Virus record (IMG/VR): IMGVR_UViG_3300043596_000006
Coordinates: 1-47,847 of that record
Source: a virus
Lineage: Duplodnaviria; Caudoviricetes
Length of the DNA: 47,847 nucleotides
Direction: 5' to 3' (one strand)
A program made the position numbers and the translations under genes. Below the pieces are notes generated by a model that worked only from the letters and a program-made list of their open reading frames with translations, did no database searches and was not told the DNA's origin. Below, piece by piece: positions 1,829 to 36,287 of the stretch (its first letter is position 1; each line of letters opens with the position of its first letter).

Positions 1829-1846
1829 CCGAGGGAGGTGTTCCAC

Positions 1847-2233
1847 GTGGCAACCAGCATCCTAACCGATGCCAAGAAGGTACTCGGCATTGCCGAGGAG
1901 TACGAAGCCTTCGACGTCGATATTCTGATGCACATCAACACGGTCTTCTCGACGCTCAACCAGTTGGGCATCGGCCCCGACGACGGATTCGAGATTGAAG
2001 ACAAGACCACCACGTGGGACGCCTTCTCTACGGATCTTCGGATGAGTAATGTGAGGACCTTTATCTATCTTCAGGTCCGGATGTACTTCGATCCACCGAC
2101 TACCGCCCACCACATCACTGCGATGCAGAACCAGATCGCGGAACTCACGTCCCGACTGAGCATCCTGAGGGAGAGTGATTCATGGACACCGCCACCAGTC
2201 CCAGTCGGGGCGACCTGGTGCCCTTCGGAGTAA
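1847..2233 (+). CDS. Head-tail connector/adaptor-like protein
   Basis: SIL...KKVLGI...FD.DI.MHIN...L.QLG and FDPPT pattern; GGGAGG RBS before GTG 1847. Confidence 0.65.
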   Translation: MATSILTDAKKVLGIAEEYEAFDVDILMHINTVFSTLNQLGIGPDDGFEIEDKTTTWDAFSTDLRMSNVRTFIYLQVRMYFDPPTTAHHITAMQNQIAELTSRLSILRESDSWTPPPVPVGATWCPSE

Positions 2234-2775
2234 AGGGTGAGGAGTTCGTCACCGATTTCCTTGAGCATTTTGGCGTCAAGGGCATGCACTGGGGGCAGCG
2301 CAAGGCCGAGCCTAGTGCGGGTGAGGCGGCCGCTCGTCTCATTGCGAATAAAGTGGGCTCTACGGTCAAGGCTTTCCACAAGGAGAACAAGGCCGACATT
2401 GAAACAGCCCGTGCTGGGTTGGCTAAGACAAGTCAGACTAAGCAGACCCACAACCAAGTGATTACCAAGGTAGGTGGTCTTCACAATATTTCTGACCGTG
2501 ACCTGAGGCTGATGCTGAATCGTCTGGACATGGAGAAGAAGTATTCGGCGATCCTGCACGAGGATCGACAGAAGCGGATCGACGGAGGAAAAGCCCTCCT
2601 CAAGGTACTCGGTAAGGCTGGGGAGATCGCGGTGCCGATCATCCTTGGCGTTATCGCGACGAGGGCCGCTACAAACGCCTTCCGTGGAGACGCCCCTTTC
2701 AAGGTGCCGGTCGTCAACCCTCAGGTCATCGAGGGTGTTGCTCGCACTCTGGGTAAGTTCCCAGAAGGTCACTAG
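2182..2775 (+). CDS. LxHFG-GMHWG leader protein 1 (putative virion/ejected protein)
   Basis: FLEHFGVKGMHWG near the N-terminus, LSD.DL....NRL.MEK helix, C-terminal hydrophobic segment. Confidence 0.8.
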   Translation: MDTATSPSRGDLVPFGVKGEEFVTDFLEHFGVKGMHWGQRKAEPSAGEAAARLIANKVGSTVKAFHKENKADIETARAGLAKTSQTKQTHNQVITKVGGLHNISDRDLRLMLNRLDMEKKYSAILHEDRQKRIDGGKALLKVLGKAGEIAVPIILGVIATRAATNAFRGDAPFKVPVVNPQVIEGVARTLGKFPEGH

Positions 2776-2789
2776 AGGGGAGGGTTGGC

Positions 2790-4523
2790 ATGAGTTTGTC
2801 GAACACCGCGACTCCCGTCTATTACGGACAGTTTCGCGACGCGGTACTTCGAGGGGACGTTCCTGTTTGTCGGGAGATCTCAATGGAGATGAACCGCATC
2901 GACGCGCTCATCGCCAACCCGAACTACTGGTACGACGACAAGGCAATCGACGGATTCATCCTTTACTGCGAGAATGAGCTCACGCTTACTGACGGTAGCG
3001 ACTTTCACATGCTACCTTCGTTCAAGCTGTGGGCCGAGCAGATCTTTGGATGGTATCACTTCATCCAACGTGAGGTCTGGGACAAACAGCAGCATCGCTT
3101 CGTTACCAAGATCATCAAGAAGCGTCTCATTGAGAAGCAGTATCTGATAGTCGCTCGTGGTGCGGCTAAGTCCATGTACGGCATGGCCATCCAGGCCTAC
3201 TTCCTGAATGTGGACACCGCGACTACCCACCAGATCACCACGGCTCCGACGATGAAGCAGGCCGACGAGATCATGTCTCCTTTTCGGACCGCGATCACGC
3301 GCGCACGCGGGGCTCTGTTCAAGTTCCTGACCTACGGTTCCGCTCAGAACACGACTGGCTCAAGGGCTCTTCGTCAGAAGCTCGTCTCCACCAAGAAGGG
3401 GATCGAGAACTTCCTGACCGGTTCGCTGCTTGAGGTCCGTCCAATGTCTATCGCTAAGCTGCAGGGTCTTCGTCCGAAGGTCTCTACAGTTGACGAATGG
3501 CTATCTGGAGACCTTCGAGAGGACGTCGTCGGGGCAATCGAGCAAGGTGCATCCAAGCTGGACGAGTGGCTGATCGTTGCGATCAGTTCGGAAGGTACGG
3601 TTCGGAACGGTTCGGGCGATACCATCAAAATGGAGTTAATGTCCATCCTCCGTGGAGAGGGCACGCCAGCCGACAACATCTCGATCTTTCACTACAAGCT
3701 CGATGATCTGACTGAAGTAGCTGACCCGACCATGTGGGTCAAGGCTCAACCCAACATTGGACTGACTGTCACCTACGAAACCTACCAGCAGGACGTCGAG
3801 CGAGCCGAACGAGCTCCAGCGTCTAGGAACGACATCTTGGCTAAGCGGTTCGGGATCCCGATGGAGGGGTACACCTACTTCTTCACCTACGAGGAGACTG
3901 AACCCCACGGCAAACAGGACTTCTGGAAGATGCCCTGTGCTATGGGTGCTGACCTCTCACAAGGCGATGACTTCTGTGCCTTCACTTTCCTGTTCCCCTT
4001 GCGATTGGGGTTCGGTGTGAAGACCAGAAGTTACATCACCCGACTGACTTTACACAAACTGCCTGGTGCTATGCGGGCTAAGTACGAAGAGTTCATCCAA
4101 GAAGGCAGCCTTCATGTCCTAGAGGGAACTATCCTCGACATGATGGAGGTCTACGAGGATCTCGAAGCCTTCATAGAACGTGAACAGTACGACATTCGAG
4201 CCTTCGGTTTCGACCCGTACAATGCCAAGGAATTTGTGAATCGTTGGGAGATGGAGAACGGTGCCTACGGCATCGAGAAGGTCATCCAGGGTGCTCGGAC
4301 CGAGAGTGTTCCTCTTGGCGAGTTGAAGATTCTTAGCGAAGAACGCATATTGTTCTTCGATCAGCGTCTAATGCAGTTCGCCATGGGTAATGCCATCACC
4401 ATTGAGGATACTAACGGTAACCGAAAGCTCCTCAAGAAGCGAATGGAAGACAAGATCGACAACGTGTCTGCTCTTATGGACGCTTACGTCGCCTGGAAGC
4501 TACATAAGGAGATGTTCGAGTGA
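2790..4523 (+). CDS. terL: Terminase large subunit
   Basis: Walker A-like VARGAAKS, Walker B STVDE, nuclease GADLSQGDD, FDPYNA and KIDNVSALMDA. Confidence 0.95.
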   Translation: MSLSNTATPVYYGQFRDAVLRGDVPVCREISMEMNRIDALIANPNYWYDDKAIDGFILYCENELTLTDGSDFHMLPSFKLWAEQIFGWYHFIQREVWDKQQHRFVTKIIKKRLIEKQYLIVARGAAKSMYGMAIQAYFLNVDTATTHQITTAPTMKQADEIMSPFRTAITRARGALFKFLTYGSAQNTTGSRALRQKLVSTKKGIENFLTGSLLEVRPMSIAKLQGLRPKVSTVDEWLSGDLREDVVGAIEQGASKLDEWLIVAISSEGTVRNGSGDTIKMELMSILRGEGTPADNISIFHYKLDDLTEVADPTMWVKAQPNIGLTVTYETYQQDVERAERAPASRNDILAKRFGIPMEGYTYFFTYEETEPHGKQDFWKMPCAMGADLSQGDDFCAFTFLFPLRLGFGVKTRSYITRLTLHKLPGAMRAKYEEFIQEGSLHVLEGTILDMMEVYEDLEAFIEREQYDIRAFGFDPYNAKEFVNRWEMENGAYGIEKVIQGARTESVPLGELKILSEERILFFDQRLMQFAMGNAITIEDTNGNRKLLKKRMEDKIDNVSALMDAYVAWKLHKEMFE

Positions 4524-4581
4524 GTGAGATGACGCATGAACAGGCTCTTGCTCACTTCGGGATCAAGGGCATGCACTGGGG
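4519..4581 (+). repeat. 63-nt exact direct repeat, copy 1 (encodes leader peptide)
   Basis: Identical to 4998-5060. Confidence 0.97.
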
Positions 4582-5002
4582 CCAGCGTAAAGCCGTGACT
4601 CCGGCGCAGAGAATTCGTCAGATCCAAGTCGAGAAAGACAAGTTTAGTGGTCAACGGATTGTCGATGGCGCTGGACTAAAGGGCTGGGCGATCAACAAGG
4701 GTTCTAAGCATCCAACCGCTCGTGCGATTACGAGTGTTTCCCTACGAGGCGCGTTCGAGGTAGGGGTTATTCTTGGCGGCGGAAAACTCTTGCTAGACCA
4801 CGTCAGTGCGAGTCCCAAAGCTAAGCAAGGTGCCGCTATTGGTATCGCTATGCTTGCTGGGCAGGTTGGCTTGACTCGAATCAATCAGATTCGGGATGTC
4901 CGTCAATTCAATGCTCACGATAAGTTGATCAAAGAGGAAGCGGCTCTTCGTAAGCAGCTTGCTGCTCAGTCGAAGGCTCACGCAAAGGCCCGATCCAAGT
5001 GA
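4520..5002 (+). CDS. LxHFG-GMHWG leader protein 2
   Basis: Starts MSEMTHEQALAHFGIKGMHWG; GTGA overlap with terL; basic body with Gly-rich hydrophobic helices. Confidence 0.85.
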   Translation: MSEMTHEQALAHFGIKGMHWGQRKAVTPAQRIRQIQVEKDKFSGQRIVDGAGLKGWAINKGSKHPTARAITSVSLRGAFEVGVILGGGKLLLDHVSASPKAKQGAAIGIAMLAGQVGLTRINQIRDVRQFNAHDKLIKEEAALRKQLAAQSKAHAKARSK

Positions 5003-5060
5003 GTGAGATGACGCATGAACAGGCTCTTGCTCACTTCGGGATCAAGGGCATGCACTGGGG
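4998..5060 (+). repeat. 63-nt exact direct repeat, copy 2
   Basis: Identical to 4519-4581. Confidence 0.97.
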
Positions 5061-5433
5061 GGAGCATCACGCTCTGGCTGAGGCAGTCCGACCTGGCAGT
5101 AAGAAAGCGGCTGACATTCGTCAGTTCGGCACCCGTGGAGTCTCTCGAATCGAGGCTCATCGGTCCGCCGGGATGTCCCGCAAGGAAGCCGTAGCCAAAG
5201 AGCGACACAGAAAGAGAGTTCAGTCTGGAGTCGTCGCTGCGGCTGCTCTTCTGGCGCTCAATGCTCCGCGCATTCGCGTGGCCTTGAATACGGCACTGGT
5301 TACGGCCGTCAATAGCAAACGAGCCGCGGACGGAGCTAAATTCGCCGCCTCGATGCTGGCAGATAGCCGAGGTCTGACCAACGTCAAGACTCTCAACGTC
5401 GCTTTCGATGCCTCAAGGAATCTCTGGGGCTAA
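4999..5433 (+). CDS. LxHFG-GMHWG leader protein 3
   Basis: Same 21-aa leader as the previous gene, different basic/hydrophobic body. Confidence 0.85.
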   Translation: MSEMTHEQALAHFGIKGMHWGEHHALAEAVRPGSKKAADIRQFGTRGVSRIEAHRSAGMSRKEAVAKERHRKRVQSGVVAAAALLALNAPRIRVALNTALVTAVNSKRAADGAKFAASMLADSRGLTNVKTLNVAFDASRNLWG

Positions 5434-5460: not shown

Positions 5461-6771
5461 ATGGCATCACTGCGTTCCCGGTTCTCCAAAGCTATATCTA
5501 CGGGTCTGTCTCATGCGTGGAACGCGTTTACTTCGCAGAATCTCGCTTCCGAGCCTCCTTCGACTGGTGGTGGAGGAGTTTGGTACGGAGGTCGACAGGA
5601 TCGGTACCGATCGGTAACCAGCTTCAATGGCGAACGTACGATCGTCGCGTCAATCTACAATCGACTGGCTATCGACGCAGCATCGATCAATATTCTCCAG
5701 GTTCGAGTTAATGATGCTGGTCAATTCATCGACACAATCGACAGCGGGTTGAACAACTGCCTTACAGTCGAGGCCAATATTGACCAAGGCGCTAGGCATT
5801 TCCGTCAAGACATGGTTTCGACGATGTTTCGCAAGGGTTGCGTGGCGATTGTGCCTGTGGATACCACAATCAACCCCTCGACGGCCAGTTTCGACATCAA
5901 ATCCATGCGCGCTGGAGAGATAATCGAGTGGCGCTCGTATCATGTGAAGGTTCGCCTTTACAACGAGCGTAAGGGCATTCTGGAAGACATCTGGCTTGAG
6001 AAGAAGTTCGTTGCAATCGCGGAGAATCCGTTCTACGAGGTGATGAACGAGCCCAACTCAACCCTAGCTCGTCTGATCTGCAAACTCGCACTCCTGGATA
6101 CCATCGACAAGCAGTCAGGATCGGGCAAACTCGATCTGATTGTCCAACTTCCCTACGTGGTCAAGGGCGAGGCTCTCCGACAGAGGGCTGAGCAGCGTAA
6201 GGCTGACGTTGAGTTCCAGTTGGCGAATAGTCAGTACGGCATCGCCTACATCGACGGTACTGAGAAGATCACACAGCTCAACCGGCCGGCAGAGAACAAT
6301 CTTCTGAAGCAGGTGGAGTACCTGACGGCCATGCTGTACAACCAGCTGGGTCTCACGGTAGAGGTGATGAACGGTACCGCCGACGAGGCGGCCATGCTGA
6401 ACTACTACGCTCGGACTATCGATCCGATCGTCTCGGCGATTGTCGAGGCCATGGCTCGTACGTTCCTGACTAAGACCGCTCGGTCTCAGAAGCAAACCAT
6501 CATGTCCTTCCACGACCCGTTCAAGTTTGTCCCGCTCAGCCAGATTGCTGAGATCGCTGACAAGTTTACGCGGAGCAACGTTGCGACGCCCAACGACATC
6601 CGCCCGAAGATCGGTCTCAAGCCGTCTAAGGATCCGGTTGCCAGCACGCTCGGCAATCCAAACATGCCGAACGACAAACAGCTCACCGCAGGGCCCAAGC
6701 AGGCAATCGAGGCTCGGCCGAAGCAGCTACAACTAACTGGAAGTGGAGGAAGCAATCAAAATGGAGCCTAA
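5461..6771 (+). CDS. Portal protein
   Basis: 436 aa between TerL and capsid; HK97-like features (SIYNRLAIDAA, LTVEAN, TPNDIR); GGAGGT RBS. Confidence 0.9.
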   Translation: MASLRSRFSKAISTGLSHAWNAFTSQNLASEPPSTGGGGVWYGGRQDRYRSVTSFNGERTIVASIYNRLAIDAASINILQVRVNDAGQFIDTIDSGLNNCLTVEANIDQGARHFRQDMVSTMFRKGCVAIVPVDTTINPSTASFDIKSMRAGEIIEWRSYHVKVRLYNERKGILEDIWLEKKFVAIAENPFYEVMNEPNSTLARLICKLALLDTIDKQSGSGKLDLIVQLPYVVKGEALRQRAEQRKADVEFQLANSQYGIAYIDGTEKITQLNRPAENNLLKQVEYLTAMLYNQLGLTVEVMNGTADEAAMLNYYARTIDPIVSAIVEAMARTFLTKTARSQKQTIMSFHDPFKFVPLSQIAEIADKFTRSNVATPNDIRPKIGLKPSKDPVASTLGNPNMPNDKQLTAGPKQAIEARPKQLQLTGSGGSNQNGA

Positions 6772-8797
6772 TTTCTCCGGCTGGGCAACTCGGCCTGACA
6801 TTAAGTGCACTGACGGCCGAACAATCAAGCCTGGCGCGTTCGAGCACATGGACGGCAAGAAGGTCCCGCTGGTATGGTCTCACAGCCACGGTTCCCCGGA
6901 GAGCGTTCTCGGGCATGTCATGCTTGAGAAGAAGGATGGTGGTCTTCGCTGCCACGGTTTCTTCAACGAGACTCCGTCCGGCACCGCTGCCCGCATGATG
7001 GTCGAGCACGGGGACGTTGACTCGCTGTCCATCTGGGCTAACAAGCTCACTGAGAAGGCGAAGCAGGTGTTCCACGGCTTCGTTCGTGAGGTCAGTCTTG
7101 TGTTGGCTGGTGCCAACGAAGGTGCGAAGATCGATGCCGTCAATCTTCAGCACTCTGATGGTGATTCTGAGGTCCTGGAGGATGAGGCAATCATCTTCAC
7201 GGGTCTGGCACTAGAGGTCGTACTGGAGCACGCTGCTCCCGCTTCCAGCGATCAGCGTACGGTCCAGGACGTCTACGACTCCATGACCGACGAGCAGAAG
7301 AACATCGTCAACTTCCTCATCGGCTCCGCTCTGTCTGCGAAGACTAGCGGCACGATGGCGCAGTCGGATGAATCCGGTGACGAGGAAGACGAGAACGACG
7401 AGAACGACGAGTCTGACAGTAACGACCCGAGCACCGCCGACGAGGACAAGAACCTCACTCACAAGGAAGGAACCAACGACGTGACTGCGAACGTGTTCGA
7501 CCAGAACTCGAAGAACGGCGGTCCTGCGGAGAAGCACGTGCTCTCTCACGACGACCAGAAGGCTATCCTGAAGCTGGCCAAGCGTCCCGGCCACACCCTC
7601 AAGACTGCGCTGGAGGACTGGTTCGAGAGCAACGCCCTGTCTCACGGCATCGAGAGCCTGGAGACCCTGTTCCCGGACGCTCGGAACATCACGGGTACCC
7701 CGGAGTTCATGAAGCGCCAGACCGAGTGGGTCGCCGGCGTCCTCAACGGCGTCAGCAAGACTCCCTTCTCCCGCATCAAGACGCTCCTGGCGGACCTGAC
7801 GCAGGACGAGGCGCGTGCCCTGGGTTACATCAAGGGCAACCTCAAGAAGGAAGAGTGGATCTCTGTCACCAAGCGTACGACCGCTCCGACGACTGTCTAC
7901 AAGAAGCAGAAGCTGGATCGGGACGATATCCTGGATATCGTCGACTTCGACGTCGTCATCTGGATCAAGGCCGAGATGCGGCTCATGCTGGAGGAGGAGC
8001 TCGCGCGTGCGATCCTCATCGGCGATGGTCGTGACCCGGGATCGGACGACAAGATCAAGGACCCGGTCGGTGCGCAGGACGGCATCGGCATTCGGTCGAT
8101 CGCGTACGACAACCCGCTGTACACGACCGTCATCAACCACCAGTTCGACGCCCTGGCGCCGGACTACAACGCCCTCATCGAGCGGATCCTGCTGGCCCGC
8201 GACCAGATGAAGGGCACTGGTGTTCCGACGTTCTACACCACGTACGCCGTTCTGACCCGCATGCTGCTGTCGAAGGACTCGTTCAACCGTCGCCTGTACG
8301 CGACCAAGGACGACCTGACCTCGGCTCTCATGGTTAAGGACGTCGTGGCGGTTGAGGCGATGGAGGGCGACACCGCCATCGTCGGTGTTCTGGTCAACCT
8401 CCAGGACTACAGCGTCGGTACGGATCGGAATGGCGAGGTCACGCTGTTCGACGACTTCGACATCGACTACAACAACTTCAAGTACTTGATGGAGACCCGC
8501 ATGTCGGGTGCTCTCACCAAGTACAAGGCGGCCATGGTCATCAAGTACGTCGATCCGACCTACACCGAGGTTGTTCCGAACGCGCCGACCTTCGTCAAGT
8601 CGACCGGCGTCGTGACGATCGTGGCGACCACCCACGTTGTGTACAAGAACGCTGACTCCGGTGCAACCCTGTCGACGGGTGCTCAGACGGCTCTCGACCC
8701 GGGCGCGACCCTCAACGTCGTGGCTGTGCCGGATGCCACCTACTTCGCCGACGACACCAAGTCCTCGTACTGGTCCTTCACGCGTCCGCACGCGTAA
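6761..8797 (+). CDS. Prohead protease-scaffold-major capsid fusion protein
   Basis: N-terminal HK97-type protease (FSGWA, VPLVWSH, DSLSI, EVSLVLAGAN), acidic linker, HK97-fold capsid (EEELARAILIGDG), C-terminal Ig-like extension. Confidence 0.9.
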   Translation: MEPNFSGWATRPDIKCTDGRTIKPGAFEHMDGKKVPLVWSHSHGSPESVLGHVMLEKKDGGLRCHGFFNETPSGTAARMMVEHGDVDSLSIWANKLTEKAKQVFHGFVREVSLVLAGANEGAKIDAVNLQHSDGDSEVLEDEAIIFTGLALEVVLEHAAPASSDQRTVQDVYDSMTDEQKNIVNFLIGSALSAKTSGTMAQSDESGDEEDENDENDESDSNDPSTADEDKNLTHKEGTNDVTANVFDQNSKNGGPAEKHVLSHDDQKAILKLAKRPGHTLKTALEDWFESNALSHGIESLETLFPDARNITGTPEFMKRQTEWVAGVLNGVSKTPFSRIKTLLADLTQDEARALGYIKGNLKKEEWISVTKRTTAPTTVYKKQKLDRDDILDIVDFDVVIWIKAEMRLMLEEELARAILIGDGRDPGSDDKIKDPVGAQDGIGIRSIAYDNPLYTTVINHQFDALAPDYNALIERILLARDQMKGTGVPTFYTTYAVLTRMLLSKDSFNRRLYATKDDLTSALMVKDVVAVEAMEGDTAIVGVLVNLQDYSVGTDRNGEVTLFDDFDIDYNNFKYLMETRMSGALTKYKAAMVIKYVDPTYTEVVPNAPTFVKSTGVVTIVATTHVVYKNADSGATLSTGAQTALDPGATLNVVAVPDATYFADDTKSSYWSFTRPHA

Positions 8798-22189: not shown

Positions 22190-22544
22190 GGTGTACGACG
22201 CCCTCAAGCAGGTGGCTCAGATCTGGCTCCCTGCTCTGGGCGCGGCATATTTCAGTTTGGCTGGGATCTGGGGATTCCCCAATCCTGAGGACGTGGTCGG
22301 CACCATCGTGGTGATCGATACTTTCCTTGGCGTAGTTCTCCATATCAGCACTCAGACCTATTCTCAGTCAGAGAAGGCGTTCGATGGTACTGCGCACATC
22401 ATGACTTCTCCGGACGGTACTGAGAAGACCTTCATGCTGGTCTTGAACAAGGATCCAGCGGGAGAACTCGTCGACATCGAGAGCAAGCCGTCCATTTCCT
22501 TCAAGATCAGTAAGGAAACTCCTAAGGTTAATCTCGCGGGCTAA
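22179..22544 (+). CDS. Holin (Dp-1-like)
   Basis: MTSKVYDALK.VAQIWLPALG...WG.P..E.VVGTI..IDTFLG..L.IS; AAGGAG RBS before ATG 22179. Confidence 0.8.
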   Translation: MTSKVYDALKQVAQIWLPALGAAYFSLAGIWGFPNPEDVVGTIVVIDTFLGVVLHISTQTYSQSEKAFDGTAHIMTSPDGTEKTFMLVLNKDPAGELVDIESKPSISFKISKETPKVNLAG

Positions 22545-22562
22545 ACACGGCCTATAGTGAGA
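22534..22562 (+). promoter_or_regulatory. Conserved 29-bp phage promoter-like motif, copy 1
   Basis: TCGCGGGCTAAACACGGCCTATAGTGAGA, followed by GAGGAG and ATG 22582. Confidence 0.85.
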
Positions 22563-22581
22563 CCCTAACCGAGGAGAACCC

Positions 22582-22869
22582 ATGTTCACTATCCGTAGGA
22601 CCACCGAACCGACCAAGCTTAAGGTCGTGATTGATGAGTTGCTCGACTCGTTGAAAGACAAAGACCCCACTACCCCCGAATACTCGGTGGTCGCGGACCA
22701 GATCCAAAAGCTCTACAAGCTGCAGGAGGTTGATTCCTCCCAGCGCGTGAGCAAGGAGACCTGGGCCCTGATCGCTGCGAATCTCGCGGGAATTGTGATC
22801 GTTGTCGGACACGAGCGATTCCACGCCATCACGACCAAAGCCTTCGGAATGGTGCGCCGCGCACAGTAA
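22582..22869 (+). CDS. Cassette protein with one TM segment
   Basis: RBS, ORF and terminator; WALIAANLAGIVIVVG. Confidence 0.8.
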   Translation: MFTIRRTTEPTKLKVVIDELLDSLKDKDPTTPEYSVVADQIQKLYKLQEVDSSQRVSKETWALIAANLAGIVIVVGHERFHAITTKAFGMVRRAQ

Positions 22870-22892
22870 CACGAGTACCAAAGAAGATCTCG

Positions 22893-22935
22893 CGTATACG
22901 CCGTCAGGTTAACCCCTGCACGGCGTATACGTTTT
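22893..22935 (+). terminator. Intrinsic terminator
   Basis: CGTATACGCCGT/ACGGCGTATACG 12-bp perfect stem followed by TTTT. Confidence 0.8.
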
Positions 22936-22955
22936 ACACGGGTTATATTTCTGCT

Positions 22956-22984
22956 TCGCAAAGAATACAGGGCTTATAGTGAGA
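22956..22984 (+). promoter_or_regulatory. Promoter-like motif, copy 2
   Basis: TCGCAAAGAATACAGGGCTTATAGTGAGA. Confidence 0.85.
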
Positions 22985-23003
22985 ACCCTACTAAGGAGAA
23001 GCC

Positions 23004-23231
23004 ATGTTTGGACGCAAAATTGCGCTGACCACTGTTGTTTCCACCCCCAAGATCACCTCCGATAACACCGAAACCACGAAGACCCCCGTCGACATTGAGA
23101 ACCTCATTCTCACTCTCGAAGGAGCGATCGCTCGTAGTGCGTGCGTTGTCGGTCTGGTAATCGTTGGTGTGGTGGCCGCCAAGAGTGTGTTCCGCACTTG
23201 TGACACCGTCGTTGCTCACGTCTACAAGTAG
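23004..23231 (+). CDS. Cassette protein with one TM segment
   Basis: AAGGAG RBS; ACVVGLVIVGVVAA. Confidence 0.8.
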   Translation: MFGRKIALTTVVSTPKITSDNTETTKTPVDIENLILTLEGAIARSACVVGLVIVGVVAAKSVFRTCDTVVAHVYK

Positions 23232-23234
23232 CTC

Positions 23235-23269
23235 ACAAGCCTAGTCCTCACAAGGGATTTAGGTTTTGT
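23235..23269 (+). terminator. Putative terminator
   Basis: AAGCCTAGTCC...GGGATTTAGGTTTT imperfect stem with G:U pairs. Confidence 0.6.
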
Positions 23270-23308
23270 ACAAGCAAAAATTTCCCGCGTGGGATTTTCG
23301 GCACAAAG

Positions 23309-23337
23309 TCGCGAAGAATACACACCCTATAATGAGA
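23309..23337 (+). promoter_or_regulatory. Promoter-like motif, copy 3
   Basis: TCGCGAAGAATACACACCCTATAATGAGA. Confidence 0.85.
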
Positions 23338-23357
23338 CCCCTACGAAAGGATCAGCC

Positions 23358-23528
23358 ATGATCAATTTCGAGAACATCCACAAGAACCACAAGCTTGCAT
23401 ACCTCGACGGCCTGCTCTGCGGCGTTGCCCTCACGATCATCGTGAACGGCTTCGTTAAAGACTACCGCGAGATGAAGCTTGCCCGGCGCTTGATGGATGA
23501 GACCGACACGACCACCGCTTCCAAGTAG
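23358..23528 (+). CDS. Cassette protein, 56 aa, one TM segment
   Basis: AAAGGA RBS before ATG 23358; GLLCGVALTIIV. Confidence 0.8.
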   Translation: MINFENIHKNHKLAYLDGLLCGVALTIIVNGFVKDYREMKLARRLMDETDTTTASK

Positions 23529-23535
23529 AACCGAG

Positions 23536-23565
23536 ACCTATCCATGAACCCGTGGTATAGGTTTT
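23536..23565 (+). terminator. Putative terminator
   Basis: ACCTATCCATG...CGTGGTATAGGTTTT. Confidence 0.6.
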
Positions 23566-23568
23566 GCC

Positions 23569-23597
23569 TCGCAGAAATTACACGGCTTATAGTGAGA
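23569..23597 (+). promoter_or_regulatory. Promoter-like motif, copy 4
   Basis: TCGCAGAAATTACACGGCTTATAGTGAGA. Confidence 0.85.
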
Positions 23598-23619
23598 CCA
23601 CAATCGAAGGAGACCCCAA

Positions 23620-23793
23620 ATGTCCCAGACCCCCATCACCGTCGACTCGTCCACCACCCCCAAGCTCCCGACCCCCAAGGAGATCGCCAAGGCCTTCGCG
23701 CCCATCGCGATCTCCTTGGCGGCCGGCATCGGCTTCGGGATGCTGATCGAGAAGATAAAAAACAAGGGAACCGACACCACCGAATCCGCCTGA
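23620..23793 (+). CDS. Cassette protein, 57 aa, one TM segment (absent from the ORF track)
   Basis: AAGGAG RBS; MSQTPITVDSSTTPKLPTPKEIAKAFAPIAISLAAGIGFGMLIEKIKNKGTDTTESA; strong C-ending codon bias. Confidence 0.85.
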   Translation: MSQTPITVDSSTTPKLPTPKEIAKAFAPIAISLAAGIGFGMLIEKIKNKGTDTTESA

Positions 23794-23805
23794 TCATCTC
23801 AACCT

Positions 23806-23842
23806 GAAAGCCCCTAAACCCGGCTTTTGGGTTTTGTTTTTT
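23806..23842 (+). terminator. Putative terminator
   Basis: AAAGCC/GGCTTT or AAACCC/GGGTTT stems followed by a T-run. Confidence 0.6.
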
Positions 23843-23857
23843 GAGGGGAGGTGGAAC

Positions 23858-24022
23858 ATGACCTGGTGGCAACGCATTCGCTTCAGCTTGGCGATGCTAA
23901 GGATAGGCCGTCTTGTGTACACGAACGAAGAGTATAAGGACGTGTGGTACTTCGACGATCTAACTCGTCGAAGAAAGGAAACGGCTCAGCCGTTTAAGTC
24001 TCAGTTCAGGATGGTGAAATGA
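23858..24022 (+). CDS. Hypothetical protein, 54 aa
   Basis: GGAGGT RBS; ATGA coupling to the next gene. Confidence 0.65.
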   Translation: MTWWQRIRFSLAMLRIGRLVYTNEEYKDVWYFDDLTRRRKETAQPFKSQFRMVK

Positions 24023-24768
24023 ACATCTCGGGTATTCCTCGACAGATCATGCGATTCGTCGGGAACAACTCGCCGGCGATCCTCACTGGGGTCGGGGTTG
24101 CTGGCGTGCTTACCACCGCGGTTCTCACCGCCAAGGCGACGTTCTCCTACATGAAGTCTCTGTCAGAGGAAGGATATTTCGATAGGGACTACACGTTCGA
24201 ACGCACACCGAAGGAGCACTTCCAGAACGCTTGGAAGTTGTATATTCCTCCGGCTGTCGCCTGCTTCGCTACGGTCACTGCGATCGTCTGTTCCAATCGG
24301 ATCGAGTACCGGCGCGCTGCTGCGGTAGCCGCTGCCTACGCCATATCCGAACGGGGCTGGGAGGAGTACAAGGCCAAGATCGTCGAGCGACTCGGTCCCA
24401 AGAAGGAGCAGGCGGCTCAGGACGAAGTGGCTCAGGACCGGGTGACCGCCAATCCGCCGTCCACGCAGACGATCATCCTCGGAGAGGGCGACTCACTCTG
24501 CATGGATTTGTGGAGCGGTCGGTATTTCCGTAGCACGATGGAGAAGGTCAAGACCGCCATGGCCGAGACCAACGCCAAGATCTACCGAGAGGATTGGGCG
24601 TCTCTCACCAGCTTCTACGAAGAGGTTGGATTGAAGTCCACGCAGGAGTCCGACAATATCGGATGGAACAAGGACCACCCGCTCGACTTGCGCTTCTCCT
24701 TCGCAGGAGACGACGAGGGGCACCCTGTCATGTGCTTCTCGTTCCGCGCAATCCCGTTCCAGTACTAA
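24019..24768 (+). CDS. Hypothetical protein (paralog family A)
   Basis: SPAILTGVGVAGV N-terminal hydrophobic segment; C-terminal FY..VG.....NIGW. Confidence 0.85.
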   Translation: MNISGIPRQIMRFVGNNSPAILTGVGVAGVLTTAVLTAKATFSYMKSLSEEGYFDRDYTFERTPKEHFQNAWKLYIPPAVACFATVTAIVCSNRIEYRRAAAVAAAYAISERGWEEYKAKIVERLGPKKEQAAQDEVAQDRVTANPPSTQTIILGEGDSLCMDLWSGRYFRSTMEKVKTAMAETNAKIYREDWASLTSFYEEVGLKSTQESDNIGWNKDHPLDLRFSFAGDDEGHPVMCFSFRAIPFQY

Positions 24769-24795
24769 ACCACAACCCGAAAGGAACCACCTGTC

Positions 24796-24993
24796 ATGAA
24801 GAACCTGCTCACCAAGAAGAACGTCCTGCTCGCCCTGGGCGGCCTGGCTGTCACCGCCGGCGCCATGGCGTTCGCCAACCGCTCGTCCCTGGTCACGCAC
24901 GTCGTGAACGAGGCTCAGGCTGGTCTGGCCGAGACTCTGGTCGACGTTGCCACCACGACCGCCAAGGCGGCCACCAAGGTTAAGAACGCCTAG
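24796..24993 (+). CDS. Small membrane protein
   Basis: AAAGGA RBS; VLLALGGLAVTAGAMAF; strong codon bias. Confidence 0.8.
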   Translation: MKNLLTKKNVLLALGGLAVTAGAMAFANRSSLVTHVVNEAQAGLAETLVDVATTTAKAATKVKNA

Positions 24994-25032
24994 TCCACCC
25001 GTCCACAAACCCACGACACACAAAGGAATATC

Positions 25033-25692
25033 ATGCTCAAGAAGGTTATCCAGTACAAGGACCTCGAAGGCAACAACGTCGTCGATGATTTCTGGTTCCA
25101 TCTGTCCATCGCCGATATTCTGGAGATGGAAACTGAGGTCGAGGGTGGTCTCAAGGCTCGGCTGCAGAAGATGATCGACAGCAAGGACGATACCCAGATC
25201 CTTTCGATCATGCGAGGCATCGTAACCCGAGCGGTAGGCGTAAAGTCCACGGACGGGCGTCGGTTCATGAAGGATGCTGAGCACAAGTCGGCGTTCTTGG
25301 ACTCGAATGCCTATTCAGCATTCCTGGTCGAGATTATGACCCTGCCGGGTGCGGCCGTGGACTTTGCGAATGGCGTGGTCCCCGCGGATCTCGACGAGCA
25401 GATCGCTAAGGCTAAGAGTAACCAGCAGCAGGAGGACCCGACTTCCTCTTCGACGTCTTCGCCCACGTCCACGGTCACGCCGGTTTCCGAGTCTCCTCTG
25501 AACGCGCAGTCCTTCGGACGCACTGAGGAGCGTGACTTCACGGACTGGCGGACCTACACCGAGGCTGAACTCCTTGGGATGGACAACGACATGTTCGAGG
25601 CCATCGGCGGCAAGATTCGTCCGGGCGTCGACAAGGTCCTCCTGGCCATCGCGTTCAAGCGCCGGAACCGTGCCACGTCGGGAGGAGCCTAG
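25033..25692 (+). CDS. Hypothetical protein
   Basis: AAAGGA RBS; YKDLEGN...FWFHLS and GVKSTDGRRF. Confidence 0.85.
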   Translation: MLKKVIQYKDLEGNNVVDDFWFHLSIADILEMETEVEGGLKARLQKMIDSKDDTQILSIMRGIVTRAVGVKSTDGRRFMKDAEHKSAFLDSNAYSAFLVEIMTLPGAAVDFANGVVPADLDEQIAKAKSNQQQEDPTSSSTSSPTSTVTPVSESPLNAQSFGRTEERDFTDWRTYTEAELLGMDNDMFEAIGGKIRPGVDKVLLAIAFKRRNRATSGGA

Positions 25693-25915
25693 ACCAACTA
25701 CGGGCTCGGCAAGTTCCTGCTCGACTGCGTCATGTTCGTCCTTACGGGTGGGCTCTGGCTCATCTGGATTTTCGTGCGTGAGATGCGCCGATAGTCATGT
25801 ATTGGCTTCGCGTGATTGAGTGGTGTTTACGTCATTGCCACGGTCTGTGGGAATCAAGAGATGACGTTGACGCCGTACAGTGCTCGAAGTGCGGAAATCT
25901 GTTCTATCGAAACAA

Positions 25916-26031
25916 GTGATATTGAGGGGCACCGGCGAGGTCGCGCGTGGGAGGGGTCTCCGCGCAGCCTATTCAGGACGCCAGGTTATAAAAGACCGCA
26001 CCTACGGTGAAATAGGCGCCCCTTATATCAC
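25916..26031 (+). ncRNA. Candidate structured RNA (multi-branch)
   Basis: Closing stem GTGATATTGAGGGGCACC/GGCGCCCCTTATATCAC encloses three hairpins; intergenic. Confidence 0.45.
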
Positions 26032-26052
26032 ACAGCCATTGAGAGGATCAAA

Positions 26053-26202
26053 ATGCACATCTTCCTGCTGTTCCTGAAAGTCGAAAGTTACGCACTGCTG
26101 TTCTGTCTTGTGCTGGCAATTCTGTGCGGAATCGTCTGTGGTATTGGAGTGGGGATCGAGCGTCTTATCCTGGGACCGCGCGACCCGAATTCGCGTAATT
26201 AA
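26053..26202 (+). CDS. Small membrane protein, 49 aa (absent from the ORF track)
   Basis: GAGAGG RBS; MHIFLLFLKVESYALLFCLVLAILCGIVCGIGVGIERLILGPRDPNSRN. Confidence 0.65.
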   Translation: MHIFLLFLKVESYALLFCLVLAILCGIVCGIGVGIERLILGPRDPNSRN

Positions 26203-26219
26203 CACACCCTATAATGAGA
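26191..26219 (+). promoter_or_regulatory. Promoter-like motif, copy 5
   Basis: TCGCGTAATTAACACACCCTATAATGAGA. Confidence 0.85.
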
Positions 26220-26258
26220 CCCCTAACAAGGCCTCTTATTATTCAGACAAGGAGAACC

Positions 26259-26480
26259 ATGGACAAGCGTGACATCACTAACGCCATTGTTCAGATCATC
26301 GTCGGGGCTGCCGTTGGCGCGGTCGTCGACAAGGGTCTGGTTGCCCTCATCCCCGCCACTGGCAAGTTCAAAGTGGCCGAGATGACTGGCATGTTCGCGG
26401 GTTGGGCCGTGTGCAACAAGTATGAGTCTCAGCTCAAGGAGCTGGTGGACAACTTCTACAACAAGCGTGAGACCCGCTAG
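26259..26480 (+). CDS. Cassette protein, 73 aa, hydrophobic
   Basis: AAGGAG RBS before ATG 26259; AIVQIIVGAAVGAVV. Confidence 0.8.
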   Translation: MDKRDITNAIVQIIVGAAVGAVVDKGLVALIPATGKFKVAEMTGMFAGWAVCNKYESQLKELVDNFYNKRETR

Positions 26481-26495
26481 TCTCCAATACATCTC

Positions 26496-26530
26496 AAAAC
26501 TAATCGGCTGAACGTGCCTTTTAGTTTTTG
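26496..26530 (+). terminator. Putative terminator
   Basis: AAAACTAA.GGC...GCC.TTAGTTTTT. Confidence 0.6.
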
Positions 26531-26549
26531 CCTACGAAGCGAGGTCGCA

Positions 26550-27200
26550 GTGCCGGAATATCCGCCAAACAGCTACGCCTCCAAGACCGCCAAGCCGGTT
26601 GAGGAGAAAGAGAAGGTTGAGAAGGTAATCGTCGGTGGAGTTACCCGCCGCAAGCCGTCTCTCGCTTCGAAGTTCAAGGCTACGTTCATTGGAGGTGACT
26701 CCAAGACTGTCGGCCGTTATATCTTGACGGACGTAGTCATCCCCACAGTCAAAGATCTCATCTTCGACATCATTACCCAGGGTAGCGAGAAGACCCTGTA
26801 CGGCGACGCTAGGTCTTCCGGTCGTCGTACCGTCGCTTCTCGTATAGGTGGCGTGGCTTATACGGCCTATCACCGTGCGGCTCAGCAGGCTAACACAGTT
26901 AGGCCGGATCCTCGGTCCACTGTGATCCAGCAGAGGGCGGCAACTCGGGCAATTCCGGTCTTCGAGGACATCATCCTCGATACGAGGGTGGAAGCCGAAG
27001 GAGTTATCGACGAACTCGTTCAGTTGATCGGTAAGTACGAGCAGGCATCGATCACCGACTTGTACGACCTGCTGGGGGAAAAGGCAGAGTACACCTACAA
27101 CTTGTGGGGGTGGCAGGATATTCAGGGCATGGGCGTCGACTACACCCGTGGTGGATATTTGCTGCGTCTACCTCCGCCGGTAGTGCTCAAGGAAGCGTAA
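26550..27200 (+). CDS. Hypothetical protein (shares C-terminal motif with family A)
   Basis: GAGGT RBS and GTG 26550; ASITDLYDLLG...NLWGW. Confidence 0.8.
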   Translation: MPEYPPNSYASKTAKPVEEKEKVEKVIVGGVTRRKPSLASKFKATFIGGDSKTVGRYILTDVVIPTVKDLIFDIITQGSEKTLYGDARSSGRRTVASRIGGVAYTAYHRAAQQANTVRPDPRSTVIQQRAATRAIPVFEDIILDTRVEAEGVIDELVQLIGKYEQASITDLYDLLGEKAEYTYNLWGWQDIQGMGVDYTRGGYLLRLPPPVVLKEA

Positions 27201-27343
27201 TGACGAACTCGCAGATACGTGAGGAAGTCAAGAAGGCATACAAGGAATCCCCGCAGTGGGCGGGAAAAGTCAACGCCATGACCGATGACCAAGTCACAGC
27301 CGTATTTATGCGGCTCAAACTCATGGGCATCATCAAAATCTGA
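27200..27343 (+). CDS. Hypothetical protein, 47 aa
   Basis: TAATG coupling; R..VKKAY...W..KV.AMTDDQV.AVF pattern. Confidence 0.75.
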   Translation: MTNSQIREEVKKAYKESPQWAGKVNAMTDDQVTAVFMRLKLMGIIKI

Positions 27344-27356
27344 AGGAGTAAGTAGG

Positions 27357-28274
27357 ATGAAAATCAAGCTCGCAAAGATCAGCAACGCCATCACAAGTCG
27401 GGCCGGCACCAAGCTGCTGGCTATCCAGGGGAAGTCTCCCGCTATCCTGTTCGGCGCCGGCGTCCTCGGCGTAGTCACCGCGACCGTCATGGCGTGCCGT
27501 GCCACTTTGCGGCTGGATGACGTCCTGACTGAGCACCAGGAGGCCTTGACGAAGCTCAACTTCCTGGACGAGCACGTCGAGGAATACACTGAGGCCGACC
27601 ACTCTCGGAACAAGTTGCGCCTGCTCATCCGTACCTCTGGTCGTATCGGTAAGCTGTACCTTCCGGGAGTAGCGGTGGGTCTGGTGTCCATCTGTGCACT
27701 GACTGGTTCGCACCTGATCCTGAACCGTCGCAACGTGGGCCTGACGGCTGCGTACGCGGCTCTGGACAAGGGCTTCCGGGACTACCGAAGCCGGGTCGTC
27801 GACGAGTTCGGTCGGGACAAGGATGATGAGTACCGATACGGCTCCATCGAGCGTGAGATTGTCGAAGAGACGAATACTGGCCCGGTCGTGAAGACGGTCA
27901 AGTCGTTCGATCCGAATAAGCGTACGGGCTACGCCAAGATCTTCGACGAGAGCTGTGCTCCGTGGGAGCGGAACTCGGAGTCCAACCGGGTGTTCCTCCA
28001 GTGCCAGCAGAACTTCTTCAACCAGCGTCTGCATTCCCGCGGACACGTGTTCCTGAATGAGGTCTACCGGGCTCTCGGTATCCCGGAGACCAAGGCCGGG
28101 CAGACGGTTGGTTGGGCACTTGACCGGAACCACGATAACTACGTCTCGTTCGGAATCTTCGAGAACATCGATGACGAGCGGGTCCGAGCGTTCGTGAACG
28201 GCAATGAGCGTTCCGTCCTGCTCGACTTCAACGTGAACGGTCCGATCCTGAACGTCCTCAAAGAGGAGATCTGA
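27357..28274 (+). CDS. Hypothetical protein (paralog family A)
   Basis: SPAILFGAGVLGVV, AAYAALDKGF..YR.RV, GHVFLNEVY..LG...VGW. Confidence 0.85.
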   Translation: MKIKLAKISNAITSRAGTKLLAIQGKSPAILFGAGVLGVVTATVMACRATLRLDDVLTEHQEALTKLNFLDEHVEEYTEADHSRNKLRLLIRTSGRIGKLYLPGVAVGLVSICALTGSHLILNRRNVGLTAAYAALDKGFRDYRSRVVDEFGRDKDDEYRYGSIEREIVEETNTGPVVKTVKSFDPNKRTGYAKIFDESCAPWERNSESNRVFLQCQQNFFNQRLHSRGHVFLNEVYRALGIPETKAGQTVGWALDRNHDNYVSFGIFENIDDERVRAFVNGNERSVLLDFNVNGPILNVLKEEI

Positions 28275-28275
28275 C

Positions 28276-29187
28276 ATGGACAAGCGAGTGGTCGCCATAA
28301 CCGCCAGTCTGGCTGCGGCTTCCGCGGCCGCTGGCGGAGTGGCAGGTTATTTCCTCGGTCTCAGCAAGGGTGTCTATAAGTTCCAGAAAGAGCTTACGGC
28401 GCAGTTGGCCGCGGCCGAGAAGGTTTTCATGATGAAGCATAAGGTTGGGATGTATCGCAGCCCCATCGACCTGGTCGAGAAGGTGGAGAACAACGTGCCG
28501 GTGGAGGGTCAGACTGAGGAGCAGATTGCCGCTCACGAGGCTGCGTATAACACGCGTAGTGCCGTCACCGACCAAGACCTTGGGAAAATCATCGAGAGCC
28601 TGCGCAAGCCTGAGGTAGGCGGTCGTCCGGGTAAGCCGATCATCGGTGGTCCCAATCAGGTCGAGTACAATGTCCCGGACAAGTCCAACGGCTCTCGTGT
28701 GATGCCGGAGGAGGAAGCTTCGCTTCTGGGCATGCGAGAAGAGCTCCAGGACGCCACTGACGACGTCAACCACAACCTCTTCGAGGAAGAGTCGGAGCAG
28801 CCGAACTACTCGGAGTACATCGAGGAGAACCCGCGGACCCGTGAGGCTCCGTACGTCATCACCACGACAGAGTTCTCCACGGGAGACGACAACATCGACG
28901 ACACATATTCCCTGGTGTGGTGGGACGAAGACGGTGTCGAGGGTATGGGTGTCCTCTCGGATATGAAGGACAACCCGATCGATGACATCGAGGCCACGGT
29001 CGGCTGGGACAACATGGAGAAGTTCGGGATGTGGTCTGGCAGCAAAAACGTCGTCTACATCCGCAATGAGCGTCTTCGCTGTGACTACGAGGTGGTCCGT
29101 CACCGGGGTAGCTACGCCGAGCATGTCGGTATCAAAGTGCAGTCGCAGCGGAAGCGCAAGTTGGCTCGTCGGGGCGCAGATGAGTGA
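28276..29187 (+). CDS. Hypothetical protein with N-terminal TM segment and acidic C-domain
   Basis: GAGGAG RBS; PYVIT..EF and VVYIRNERL..DYEV. Confidence 0.8.
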   Translation: MDKRVVAITASLAAASAAAGGVAGYFLGLSKGVYKFQKELTAQLAAAEKVFMMKHKVGMYRSPIDLVEKVENNVPVEGQTEEQIAAHEAAYNTRSAVTDQDLGKIIESLRKPEVGGRPGKPIIGGPNQVEYNVPDKSNGSRVMPEEEASLLGMREELQDATDDVNHNLFEEESEQPNYSEYIEENPRTREAPYVITTTEFSTGDDNIDDTYSLVWWDEDGVEGMGVLSDMKDNPIDDIEATVGWDNMEKFGMWSGSKNVVYIRNERLRCDYEVVRHRGSYAEHVGIKVQSQRKRKLARRGADE

Positions 29188-29711
29188 GTCCGCCGCTTGA
29201 TGAGTCATATTTCCAATGGCTCTACGGTCAAGTCGCCGATCCCGAAGAATCCAAGCCTTCCAGGACACACTGGGGGCTGCTGAAGCAGCTCTACACCAAG
29301 GAGTTCGCTTGGTTCGTCCCTAACGATGACAACCGAGCCGAGGATGGGAAGGCTCTTCGAGCGGAATTCATTGAGGAATCCGATATTCCCTATGTGGATG
29401 AATCATGGCTCACTCTCGGATGCTCGATGCTCGAACTTCTGATCGGATTGTCGCGGCGGCTCACCTTCCAAGCTGAGGGTGAGCCCCGCGACTGGTTCTG
29501 GCGACTAATCAAGAATGCTGGCCTGCATGTCCACAGCGATAGGCAAAAATTTCCGCGGGTGGACGTTGACCAGAAACTCGATGGGATAATCTGGAGGAAA
29601 TACGAGTATAACGGACATGGCGGACTGTTTCCGCTGAGTTACTCTTACGCTGACCAGACAGAAGTAGAACTCTGGTATCAACTGCAGGCATATTTGATCG
29701 AAAACTGTTGA
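29184..29711 (+). CDS. Hypothetical protein
   Basis: GTGA coupling; NDDNRAEDG..LR, CSMLELLIGLSRR, GGLFPL. Confidence 0.8.
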   Translation: MSPPLDESYFQWLYGQVADPEESKPSRTHWGLLKQLYTKEFAWFVPNDDNRAEDGKALRAEFIEESDIPYVDESWLTLGCSMLELLIGLSRRLTFQAEGEPRDWFWRLIKNAGLHVHSDRQKFPRVDVDQKLDGIIWRKYEYNGHGGLFPLSYSYADQTEVELWYQLQAYLIENC

Positions 29712-29726
29712 GCGGAGGGAGGTTAG

Positions 29727-33560: not shown

Positions 33561-34027
33561 TGGCAATCGAAAGTATCCCTCTGTATCCGAAGATCGCAGG
33601 AGTTCCTATCCGTAAGGATGGACAGAAGATCGGAGAGGCTAGGATCGAAGCAAACGGGGAGATGATCATAAGCTTCCCTGATTCGATTCTGAGAGACATC
33701 GTGACGATGATCCGAGAGGGTTTCGTTGATGGGTTCTCCTTGTCTCCGAACGTAATTCCTGCAGAGCCGAGTAGTGTAAGAGAACGACCAACCATCCCTG
33801 TTCCTCCTCCTGGAGCATTTCTTGGTGGTGTAACGCATTTTTCTGTTACCGAAGAAGCTGTATTCGGAGACAACAACACGATCATCATGTCTGGGGCCTT
33901 CAAGGACCAGTCTGACGTACCTGTTTTTTGGGGTGACGGTGGGCAGGTCATCGGAAAGGCCCAAATTAAGGCTGACGGCACGGCCATATTCGACTTCTCT
34001 TCACACCCTGATGCGGAAGACGAATAG
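33557..34027 (+). CDS. Hypothetical protein with internal duplication
   Basis: GTGA coupling; two copies of VP...DG..IG.A.I..(N/D)G. Confidence 0.7.
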   Translation: MMAIESIPLYPKIAGVPIRKDGQKIGEARIEANGEMIISFPDSILRDIVTMIREGFVDGFSLSPNVIPAEPSSVRERPTIPVPPPGAFLGGVTHFSVTEEAVFGDNNTIIMSGAFKDQSDVPVFWGDGGQVIGKAQIKADGTAIFDFSSHPDAEDE

Positions 34028-34299
34028 TGGAGGAGAACCAACAACCGACGTATCTCGTGTTGGACGACGGTATGTCCTTCACGGAGCTGCCCATTCATCC
34101 AGAGTCGATCCCGATCATGAACGACGGATTCCTCGTTGGGACCGGTATTATTGGTAAGAATGGGCAGCTCACGATACACCTATTCGGACCCCAGGGCAGA
34201 GAGCTTGAGAGACTCTATGTCCTGGGTAAGTTCGACACCTTTTATTTCGCACCCAATCTCAAGGAGAGCACGGATGGACCTGCAGAAGCGGGCTCGTGA
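34027..34299 (+). CDS. Hypothetical protein
   Basis: TAGTG coupling; related IPIMNDGFLVGTGIIGKNG motif. Confidence 0.65.
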   Translation: MEENQQPTYLVLDDGMSFTELPIHPESIPIMNDGFLVGTGIIGKNGQLTIHLFGPQGRELERLYVLGKFDTFYFAPNLKESTDGPAEAGS

Positions 34300-34738: not shown

Positions 34739-34739
34739 C

Positions 34740-35312: not shown

Positions 35313-35557
35313 TGGGGATGTTCATTACCGCTCTGTCCTTCGAGGCGCTGCTCATTTTCCTGGCCATGATCATTGGCTATGTGCTGGGGACACTCAAGGA
35401 GAAGAACGAAGAACCCGGTGTCACGCACACCGAGAACACCTTGTTCACGGTGTTCCACGAGCTCCGAGCGGCGGGTATGACCGACAACGAGGCTCAGGAC
35501 ACGATCATGCGGATGCAGAACGAGGGTATCCTATTTCGGGAGGTAGCGAAGTCGTGA
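35309..35557 (+). CDS. Small membrane protein
   Basis: ATGA coupling; N-terminal TM; GILFRE. Confidence 0.75.
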   Translation: MMGMFITALSFEALLIFLAMIIGYVLGTLKEKNEEPGVTHTENTLFTVFHELRAAGMTDNEAQDTIMRMQNEGILFREVAKS

Positions 35558-36286: not shown

Positions 36287-36287
36287 G

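Follow-up and report, generated by a model that had tools for sequence, protein, structure and literature searches.

A candidate head-loading and trimming tag on accessory head proteins and the RNA polymerase of a 1706-like siphophage

The virus record IMGVR_UViG_3300043596_000006 (47,847 nucleotides, analyzed over its whole length and referred to here as the window) is a 1706-like siphophage genome of the actinophage supercluster BI/AM/AU/AW/DJ/CC/EL. It raises the question of why three proteins of the head module and an RNA polymerase encoded near the other end of the window begin with similar leaders built on a Leu-x-His motif (LxH). The original prediction regarded the leader as an address that loads cargo into the prohead, analogous in function to the capsid targeting sequence (CTS) of phage T4, and possibly clipped after LxH. 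On the basis of sequence comparisons, we lean toward a T4-like head-loading and trimming tag, in which the predicted cut follows His and leaves the conserved part attached to the cargo; the polymerase and the basic accessory proteins are likely brought into the virion by this leader.

All four leaders were found in frame and near the N termini of their open reading frames (ORFs), as had been claimed. LEHFGVKGMHWG lies at 2260-2295 (His 29 of ORF 2182-2775), LAHFGIKGMHWG at both 4547-4582 and 5026-5061 (His 12 of ORFs 4520-5002 and 4999-5433), and LAHFGILRKSGRYPWG at 44459-44506 (His 11 of ORF 44435-47149). The three head-module genes (2182, 4520, and 4999, named by their first positions) flank the terminase large subunit gene (terL) upstream of the portal gene. 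The features concerned are listed below, with a slash for the predicted cut after His.

1838..2233, + strand: head-tail connector; left landmark of the cargo interval
2182..2775, + strand: tagged basic protein of a conserved connector-terL family; 197 amino acids (aa); isoelectric point (pI) 10.2 after His; one hydrophobic stretch
2260..2295, + strand: DUF7211 leader LEH/FGVKGMHWG
2790..4523, + strand: terminase large subunit (terL)
4520..5002, + strand: tagged variable basic protein; 160 aa; pI 11.3 after His
4547..4582, + strand: DUF7211 leader LAH/FGIKGMHWG
4999..5433, + strand: tagged variable basic protein; 144 aa; pI 11.6 after His; leader DNA duplicated with that of 4520
5026..5061, + strand: DUF7211 leader LAH/FGIKGMHWG
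5461..6771, + strand: portal; possible site LSH/AWNAF at 5506-5514, conservation incomplete
44435..47149, + strand: single-chain YonO-like RNA polymerase, putatively two-barrel, with helix-turn-helix (HTH) modules; PHROG 4291; DFDGD at 45977-45991
44459..44506, + strand: polymerase-type leader LAH/FGILRKSGRYPWG

The bodies behind the leaders were indeed unrelated (best pairwise BLASTP E value among the four, 0.026). The pattern [LIM]xH[FYHW]G, chosen post hoc after the motif had been seen, occurred four times in the 63 window ORFs (shuffle mean, 0.38; at least four in 2 of 1,000 shuffles). The 2182, 4520, and 4999 proteins matched the Pfam family DUF7211 (PF23847), to which no function is assigned, with 46.9, 37.0, and 29.1 bits, respectively (curated cutoff, 27). 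These are the only three DUF7211 matches of the genome; the polymerase leader did not match the family at an E value of 0.05, and the family likewise misses other LxH-headed classes described below. Because 63 bases are identical in the 4520 and 4999 leaders (4519-4581 = 4998-5060), these two represent one recent duplication, and the window thus provides three independent cases. Rather than random cargo, the body of 2182 is a member of a family conserved between the connector and terL. In phage 1706, the first module of orf7, a gene at the corresponding place, aligned weakly with it (E value, 6e-5), and the Atlas named no fold for the 2182 protein. The 4520 body formed a family of one among the loci fetched.

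For comparison, 160 loci were fetched by polymerase and terL and two by the capsid precursor described below; GenBank stretches were added, and the tag was searched for with a profile. This yielded 279 tagged ORFs, every one on the + strand of its locus, of which 274 were parsed into 177 clusters at 80% identity. His was located no more than 15 residues from the start in 149 of the 177 clusters; the piece before His was acidic in 131, and the remainder had a pI of >9 in 172. The conserved columns were -2, 0, +2, +5, +8, +9, and +11 relative to His, while upstream positions were variable, and the second residue of LxH was often another His (57%). The bodies fell into 55 to 64 unrelated families among 176, the largest holding 89 to 95. 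In 60 dereplicated loci (of 102), according to crude ORF calls, the tag headed 123 of 189 accessory ORFs between the connector and the capsid gene, compared with 1 of 420 ORFs downstream of the capsid gene, none of the 257 that precede the polymerase, and 1 of 153 in the interval from polymerase to connector. These loci contained 0 to 8 tagged genes each. Untagged ORFs of the head interval, from similarly crude calls, exhibited a modest enrichment of N-terminal LxH (19 of 66; p 0.009). Marker genes of the 1706-like lineage were present in 76 of 77 loci fetched by the tag alone, and the tag profile matched 55,878 clusters at 50% identity.

A leader profile had been suggested as a means of cataloguing cargo, and across related phages it did list cargo domains, namely, papain-fold toxin, Ntox50, 2H phosphoesterase, and GNAT. 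Pfam scans found three papain-fold toxins, two Ntox50, one 2H phosphoesterase, and one portal in 100 of the 177 clusters (mostly the longer ones); 12 2H, 7 GNAT, and 1 LysM in 95 longer relatives; and 4 GNAT, 2 papain-fold, 2 2H, and 1 HTH in 47 of 146 polyproteins. The majority of tagged bodies matched no family. In some polyproteins, a 2H phosphoesterase stands ahead of the tag (L084:10681-12276, which is ReqiPepy6 gp13; P0001; P0004; P0010). Anti-CBASS (cyclic oligonucleotide-based antiphage signaling system) 2H enzymes degrade cyclic nucleotide signals, and these domains could be predicted to do the same. Two portals carry a C-terminal tagged module, one of the DUF7211 type (L156:11836-13455) and one of a different LxH-headed class (L068:17332-19272). 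A third LxH-headed class, YASxYYDPxKAHEYY, was observed in the portal-capsid interval (13 distinct sequences; L094:13875, L095:13104, L084:21319, and others) and a fourth, HKYxK...W.Y, in L155 and 1706 orf7; neither class was found in the window.

The prediction that cargo is clipped after LxH directs attention to the prohead protease, which in the window is made fused via an acidic spacer to the capsid protein.

6761..8797, + strand: protease-spacer-capsid precursor (putative S78 protease, acidic spacer, major capsid protein)
7145..7645, + strand: spacer with five [LIVM]xH sites (LQH/S at 7145, LEH/A at 7223, LTH/K at 7454, LSH/D at 7541, and LSH/G at 7637)

The precursor frame is open from 6743, and the ATG at 6761 is preceded by GGAGG. 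The S78 prohead protease family (PF04586) matched with 25.8 bits (cutoff, 21), and His41 and Ser90, which we take to be the catalytic residues, were invariant in 55 sequences. A search of the PDB with the precursor profile gave one weak protease-capsid match (E value, 0.036), and PDB searches with the single precursor and polymerase sequences found no solved relative. Protease-capsid fusions are already known in print (PMC5513430, PMC7302621).

Among 60 precursors below 85% identity (of 98), 324 of 358 spacer His residues were in an [LIVM]xH context (18.8% expected), with 4 to 8 sites per spacer; since the precursor sequences are related and hence not independent, the significance of these counts is overstated. 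The corresponding count was 216 of 251 in 34 further spacers. The protease domain of the same 60 precursors had 190 of 347 His residues in this context, and the mature capsid part was at the chance level (67 of 278; 24.2% expected). His 131, 157, 263, and 295 of the spacer were invariant or near-invariant, and the rest of the spacer was variable. The last site of the window, LSH/G, is immediately before GIESLETLFP, where a mature capsid protein of 383 aa is predicted to start. We consider it very probable that the protease cuts after [LIVM]-x-His, removes the spacer, and frees the capsid protein at LSH/G.

The same short site recurs in tagged polyproteins, which have one tag per module. In a first set (86 of 95 proteins kept), 78 of 99 junctions had a second [LIVM]xH 12 to 75 residues before the internal tag, compared with 20 of 99 in a control window; in a second set, a site at such a distance was present at 140 of 249 junctions (control, 14 of 249). 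The piece between the paired sites was acidic in 75 of the 78 and 132 of the 140 cases, and the preceding module was basic. Paired sites around acidic linkers are the layout expected if the protease excises the linkers and frees the tagged modules. The arrangement parallels those of T4 and phiKZ, in which short Glu-ending motifs stud scaffolds and propeptides, as [LIVM]xH does the spacer and linkers here.

These observations fit the following mechanism. There is good reason to expect that the tagged proteins, encoded in the head module, enter the prohead; database labels of phage 1706 (see below) agree. On balance, the conserved part of the tag (G-x-x-G-x-x-W-G-x-R or, in the polymerase, S-G-R-Y-P-W-G) would be what docks the cargo on the precursor shell. 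The protease would then probably trim the short acidic piece before His together with the acidic linkers of polyproteins, so that the basic modules keep the tag as a new N terminus. These modules would sit on the packaged DNA and be ejected at infection, and in some relatives they include enzymes that would act on the host or on host defences.

The proposed analogy with the T4 CTS thus stood in part. In T4, the CTS of IPI to IPIII and Alt is cut by the protease gp21 after Glu (L/I-X-E), and the address precedes the cut and is removed (PMC9026906). Compared by features rather than by sequence, both systems mark internal proteins that are diverse, basic, and variable with a short signal at the N terminus, and in both a three-residue hydrophobic-x-P1 site (P1 being the residue before the cut) is common to the tag and to a scaffold, which is cut many times in T4 and is predicted to be so here. 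The predicted P1 residue is His here, in contrast to Glu in T4; moreover, protease, spacer, and capsid protein form one chain here, tags are repeated in polyproteins, and a polymerase is tagged. The analogy breaks down over what follows the cut: because the conserved residues lie mostly after the predicted site, the tag would stay on the cargo, whereas the T4 address is removed.

This last point also fits a maturation switch, in which the proteins would enter the head by other contacts, the acidic mask would be removed, and the basic aromatic N terminus would bind DNA or signal ejection. Conservation mostly after His would then remain on the mature protein, the piece before His is short, variable, and acidic, and in T4 it is the removed part that is the address. 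One tag per polyprotein module suits either reading. We nevertheless regard a switch in place of an address as unlikely, given that a shared tag on so many unrelated body families is most simply a shared route into the head. The tag may serve as an address, as a switch unmasked by cutting, or as both.

The head-loading tag would also account for the leader of the polymerase. This protein is the counterpart of 1706 orf75 (38% identity over its length) and belongs to the same YonO-like family, PHROG 4291 (1,262 bits); its match to the RdRP family was weak and under the cutoff (E value, 4e-4). Of 50,697 phage records, 250 had a match to it, and the majority of these came from phages of Arthrobacter, Gordonia, Streptomyces, and Lactococcus. 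LSGADFDGD was present in 128 of 128 long matches, and the leader L-x-H-x-G...SGR[YF] was present in all 106 distinct polymerase N termini. Neighbours in the Atlas were limited to its own family, and a PDB profile search for a solved relative returned only HTH or repeat matches. Some gene calls lose the leader: the Atlas protein starts at residue 39, and HotFries gene 56 is annotated from 40664. One candidate, P0158, was rejected on examination as a DUF7211-tagged polymerase; its first module (residues 100-260) resembles, by eye and by motif, a RelA/SpoT-type nucleotidyltransferase, which Pfam did not confirm. In the parts of the literature available, the 1706 polymerase is one of five YonO-like families (PMC2919709), and DxDGD with terminal HTH domains is described as a signature of the 1706-like group, with the DxDGD "HTH protein" of the supercluster that has the window's polymerase named as a putative polymerase and signature gene (bioRxiv 10.1101/842583). 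These parts make no mention of the leader or of packaging.

Two lines of evidence tie the polymerase leader to the DUF7211 tag. First, in prophage locus L142, where DUF7211 was not found, the gene between connector and terL and the gene between terL and portal both start with the polymerase-type leader, and one body under this leader is related to DUF7211-tagged bodies (E value, 3e-5). Second, both orf75 (the polymerase) and orf7 (with two tags) of phage 1706 are labelled "structural protein" in GenBank EU081845. The 1706 record holds eleven structural labels plus a portal, a capsid, and two tail proteins (15 in all), and the ReqiPepy6 record repeats the structural labels for the orf75 and orf7 counterparts. 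In work by Garneau in 2008, 15 virion proteins of phage 1706 were reportedly identified by mass spectrometry. With the spacers, the polyproteins, and the confinement of tags to the head module, the swap and the labels support well, by comparison, the clipping of cargo after LxH. We think it rather likely that the polymerase would travel by the same route.

Once ejected, the polymerase might start early transcription, perhaps from CGC-N15-TATRRT, a suggestion that we put forward at slightly less than even confidence. The pattern, which was derived from the window's own repeats, was found at the following positions.

43565..43588, + strand: CGC-N15-TATAAT promoter-like motif, before the VRR-NUC, exonuclease, and polymerase gene run
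22535, 22957, 23310, 23570, 26192, 36289, and 39847 (22535..39870), + strand: seven further CGC-N15-TAT(A)RT motifs, in the non-structural half

As CGC-N15-TAT[AGT]RT, it had 8 copies, all on the + strand (1.12 expected; 0 of 100 shuffles reached 8), and other spacings occurred in one copy at most each. None of the 8 copies was before head or tail genes of the window. Elsewhere, the motif was present on the + strand of HotFries (5 copies), ReqiPepy6 (5 in two stretches), 1706 (1 copy), and several Firmicute loci; the stretches of P118 and oengus that were searched had no copy on this strand. The motif is thus real, and the claim that it forms a dedicated promoter was the weakest part of the original prediction: its -10 box is of the host type, and only 6 of 44 dereplicated loci had a copy immediately ahead of the polymerase operon. 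Were the polymerase to read this motif, transcription could begin only with an enzyme supplied in the virion, in agreement with packaging; recognition by a host sigma factor together with a phage activator is also compatible with the data.

Accordingly read, the accessory proteins would be tagged cargo and the polymerase a non-virion late-gene enzyme with a separate leader, the repeats being host-sigma promoters aided by an activator. SP-beta YonO is such a non-virion polymerase for late genes, and T4 middle promoters are host-sigma promoters helped by a phage activator. The lack of a DUF7211 match in the polymerase leader, the host-type box, the rarity of the motif before the polymerase operon, and its absence from the P118 and oengus stretches agree with this alternative. 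We judge it improbable in view of the structural label of 1706 orf75, the L-x-H-x-G start of every distinct polymerase, and the replacement of DUF7211 by the polymerase-type leader on head-module genes in L142. More improbable still is that the leader of structural accessory proteins stays uncut and acts as a small module binding metal, shell, or portal, with the spacer likeness due to a common helix pattern: LxH conserved in proteins not expected to be cut, the frequent second His, and the two portals with C-terminal tagged modules would suit it, but paired sites around acidic linkers and 4 to 8 sites per spacer are hard to explain without cutting.

Several observations weigh against the reading of the leader as a loading and trimming tag. 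The last spacer site was at the window's pre-capsid position in 26 of 60 precursors and 4 to 27 residues upstream in the others. The residue after His is H, Y, or F in tags, as opposed to S, G, A, or N in spacer sites. [LIVM]xH was also enriched in the connector (57 of 117 His residues) and the candidate small terminase (49 of 78), and therefore the motif alone is not specific; an LxH site was present in 52 of 70 parsed portal N termini (7 were not parsed). We count neither the portal site nor LxH alone as strong evidence. A VRH-S is near-invariant inside the polymerase. The 1706 labels are database annotations, and orf62 and orf71, which lack the leader and are among non-structural genes, carry them too; the structural list may thus hold passengers. 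No DUF7211 gene was found in 3 of the 60 dereplicated loci, and in L198 the tagged genes come after tail-like genes, the 8 kb around them being free of lineage markers. Family scans matched no enzyme family in the three tagged bodies of the window (2182, 4520, and 4999). As for 1706 orf71 (L169:5659-6012), it had no Pfam match, and we liken it, by motif, to Acb2/Tad1-type signal sponges. The available part of PMC5883640 contains no virion proteomics of oengus.

Besides T4, two groups of known systems resemble the tag and its presumed protease. In phiKZ, 201phi2-1, and SPN3US, the prohead protease acts at redundant short sites in the portal and in many internal proteins (PMC9026906, PMC5694885). 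Head proteolysis at short motifs and a packaged RNA polymerase (here predicted) are common to both; theirs are giant myoviruses with cuts after Glu, long propeptides, and a five-subunit polymerase, whereas the present siphophage, of 48 kb, has a polymerase of one chain and a conserved tag of 12 to 16 residues. MuF and polyvalent head proteins are head-packaged carriers of variable effectors, including 2H phosphoesterases, and are also fused to portals (PMC5512222, in the part available). Variable effectors of this kind and portal fusions occur in both systems; the carrier is a folded MuF domain there and a short tag here, and no MuF domain match was seen in the tagged proteins scanned by Pfam.

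The family name DUF7211, the precursor fusion, and the polymerase are already known. Neither a link among tag, spacer site, and polymerase nor any experiment on cutting, packaging, or ejection was found in print, and nothing was found under DUF7211, in a search that most subscription papers lay outside. A prohead protease with His at P1, or cleavage after histidine, was not found in the literature among the matches listed. At its broadest, our interpretation would be of a huge lineage of small siphophages from soil and gut with a general means of protein delivery: a His-cutting protease, a portable tag (about 12 residues) able to load whatever module is fused to it and retained on that module, self-processing polyproteins, and a packaged single-chain two-barrel polymerase with its own cross-phylum promoter. 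The variable bodies carried in this way would number in the tens of thousands, with toxin-like and counter-defence enzymes among them. We offer this broad picture as tentative and rather doubtful as a whole.

If the tag does act as proposed, the very large DUF7211 family would gain a function, and its bodies would be marked as injected effectors, providing a list for counter-defence discovery. A prohead protease with His at P1 would then exist, as would a packaged polymerase in ordinary-sized siphophages, and the portable tag would be a tool for protein delivery into Gram-positive bacteria. Host-independent early transcription could help explain how one lineage spans Actinobacteria and Firmicutes. 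Cultured members exist (1706 and the BI, AM, AU, and DJ phages), and the predictions are directly testable in them.

Other features of the window and its relatives were noted in passing. The record is classified in IMG/VR as linear and 80% complete; its ends overlap by 215 bases with one mismatch by eye. CGCCGCTGT at 47455-47463, within a stretch near-identical to the ReqiPepy6 genome end, is probably a 3' cos overhang, in which case a single gene would follow that of the polymerase in the packaged DNA. Two major-tail-like genes (9448-10314 and 10906-11700) have related DNA, and two are also annotated in HotFries and ReqiPepy6. The helicase gene (41174-42703) encodes a low-complexity region rich in Ser and Thr near residues 285-395, where long ORFs in another frame overlap it; the protein exceeds the HotFries helicase in length by about 120 aa, possibly through a frameshift or an insertion. 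An A+T-rich intergenic region with short repeats 3' of this gene (42680-43000) may be a replication origin. Finally, an untagged Gly/Asn-rich gene block occupies the head interval of three gut-phage loci (L126:1711-4914, L155:7170-8673, and L158:1726-4325).

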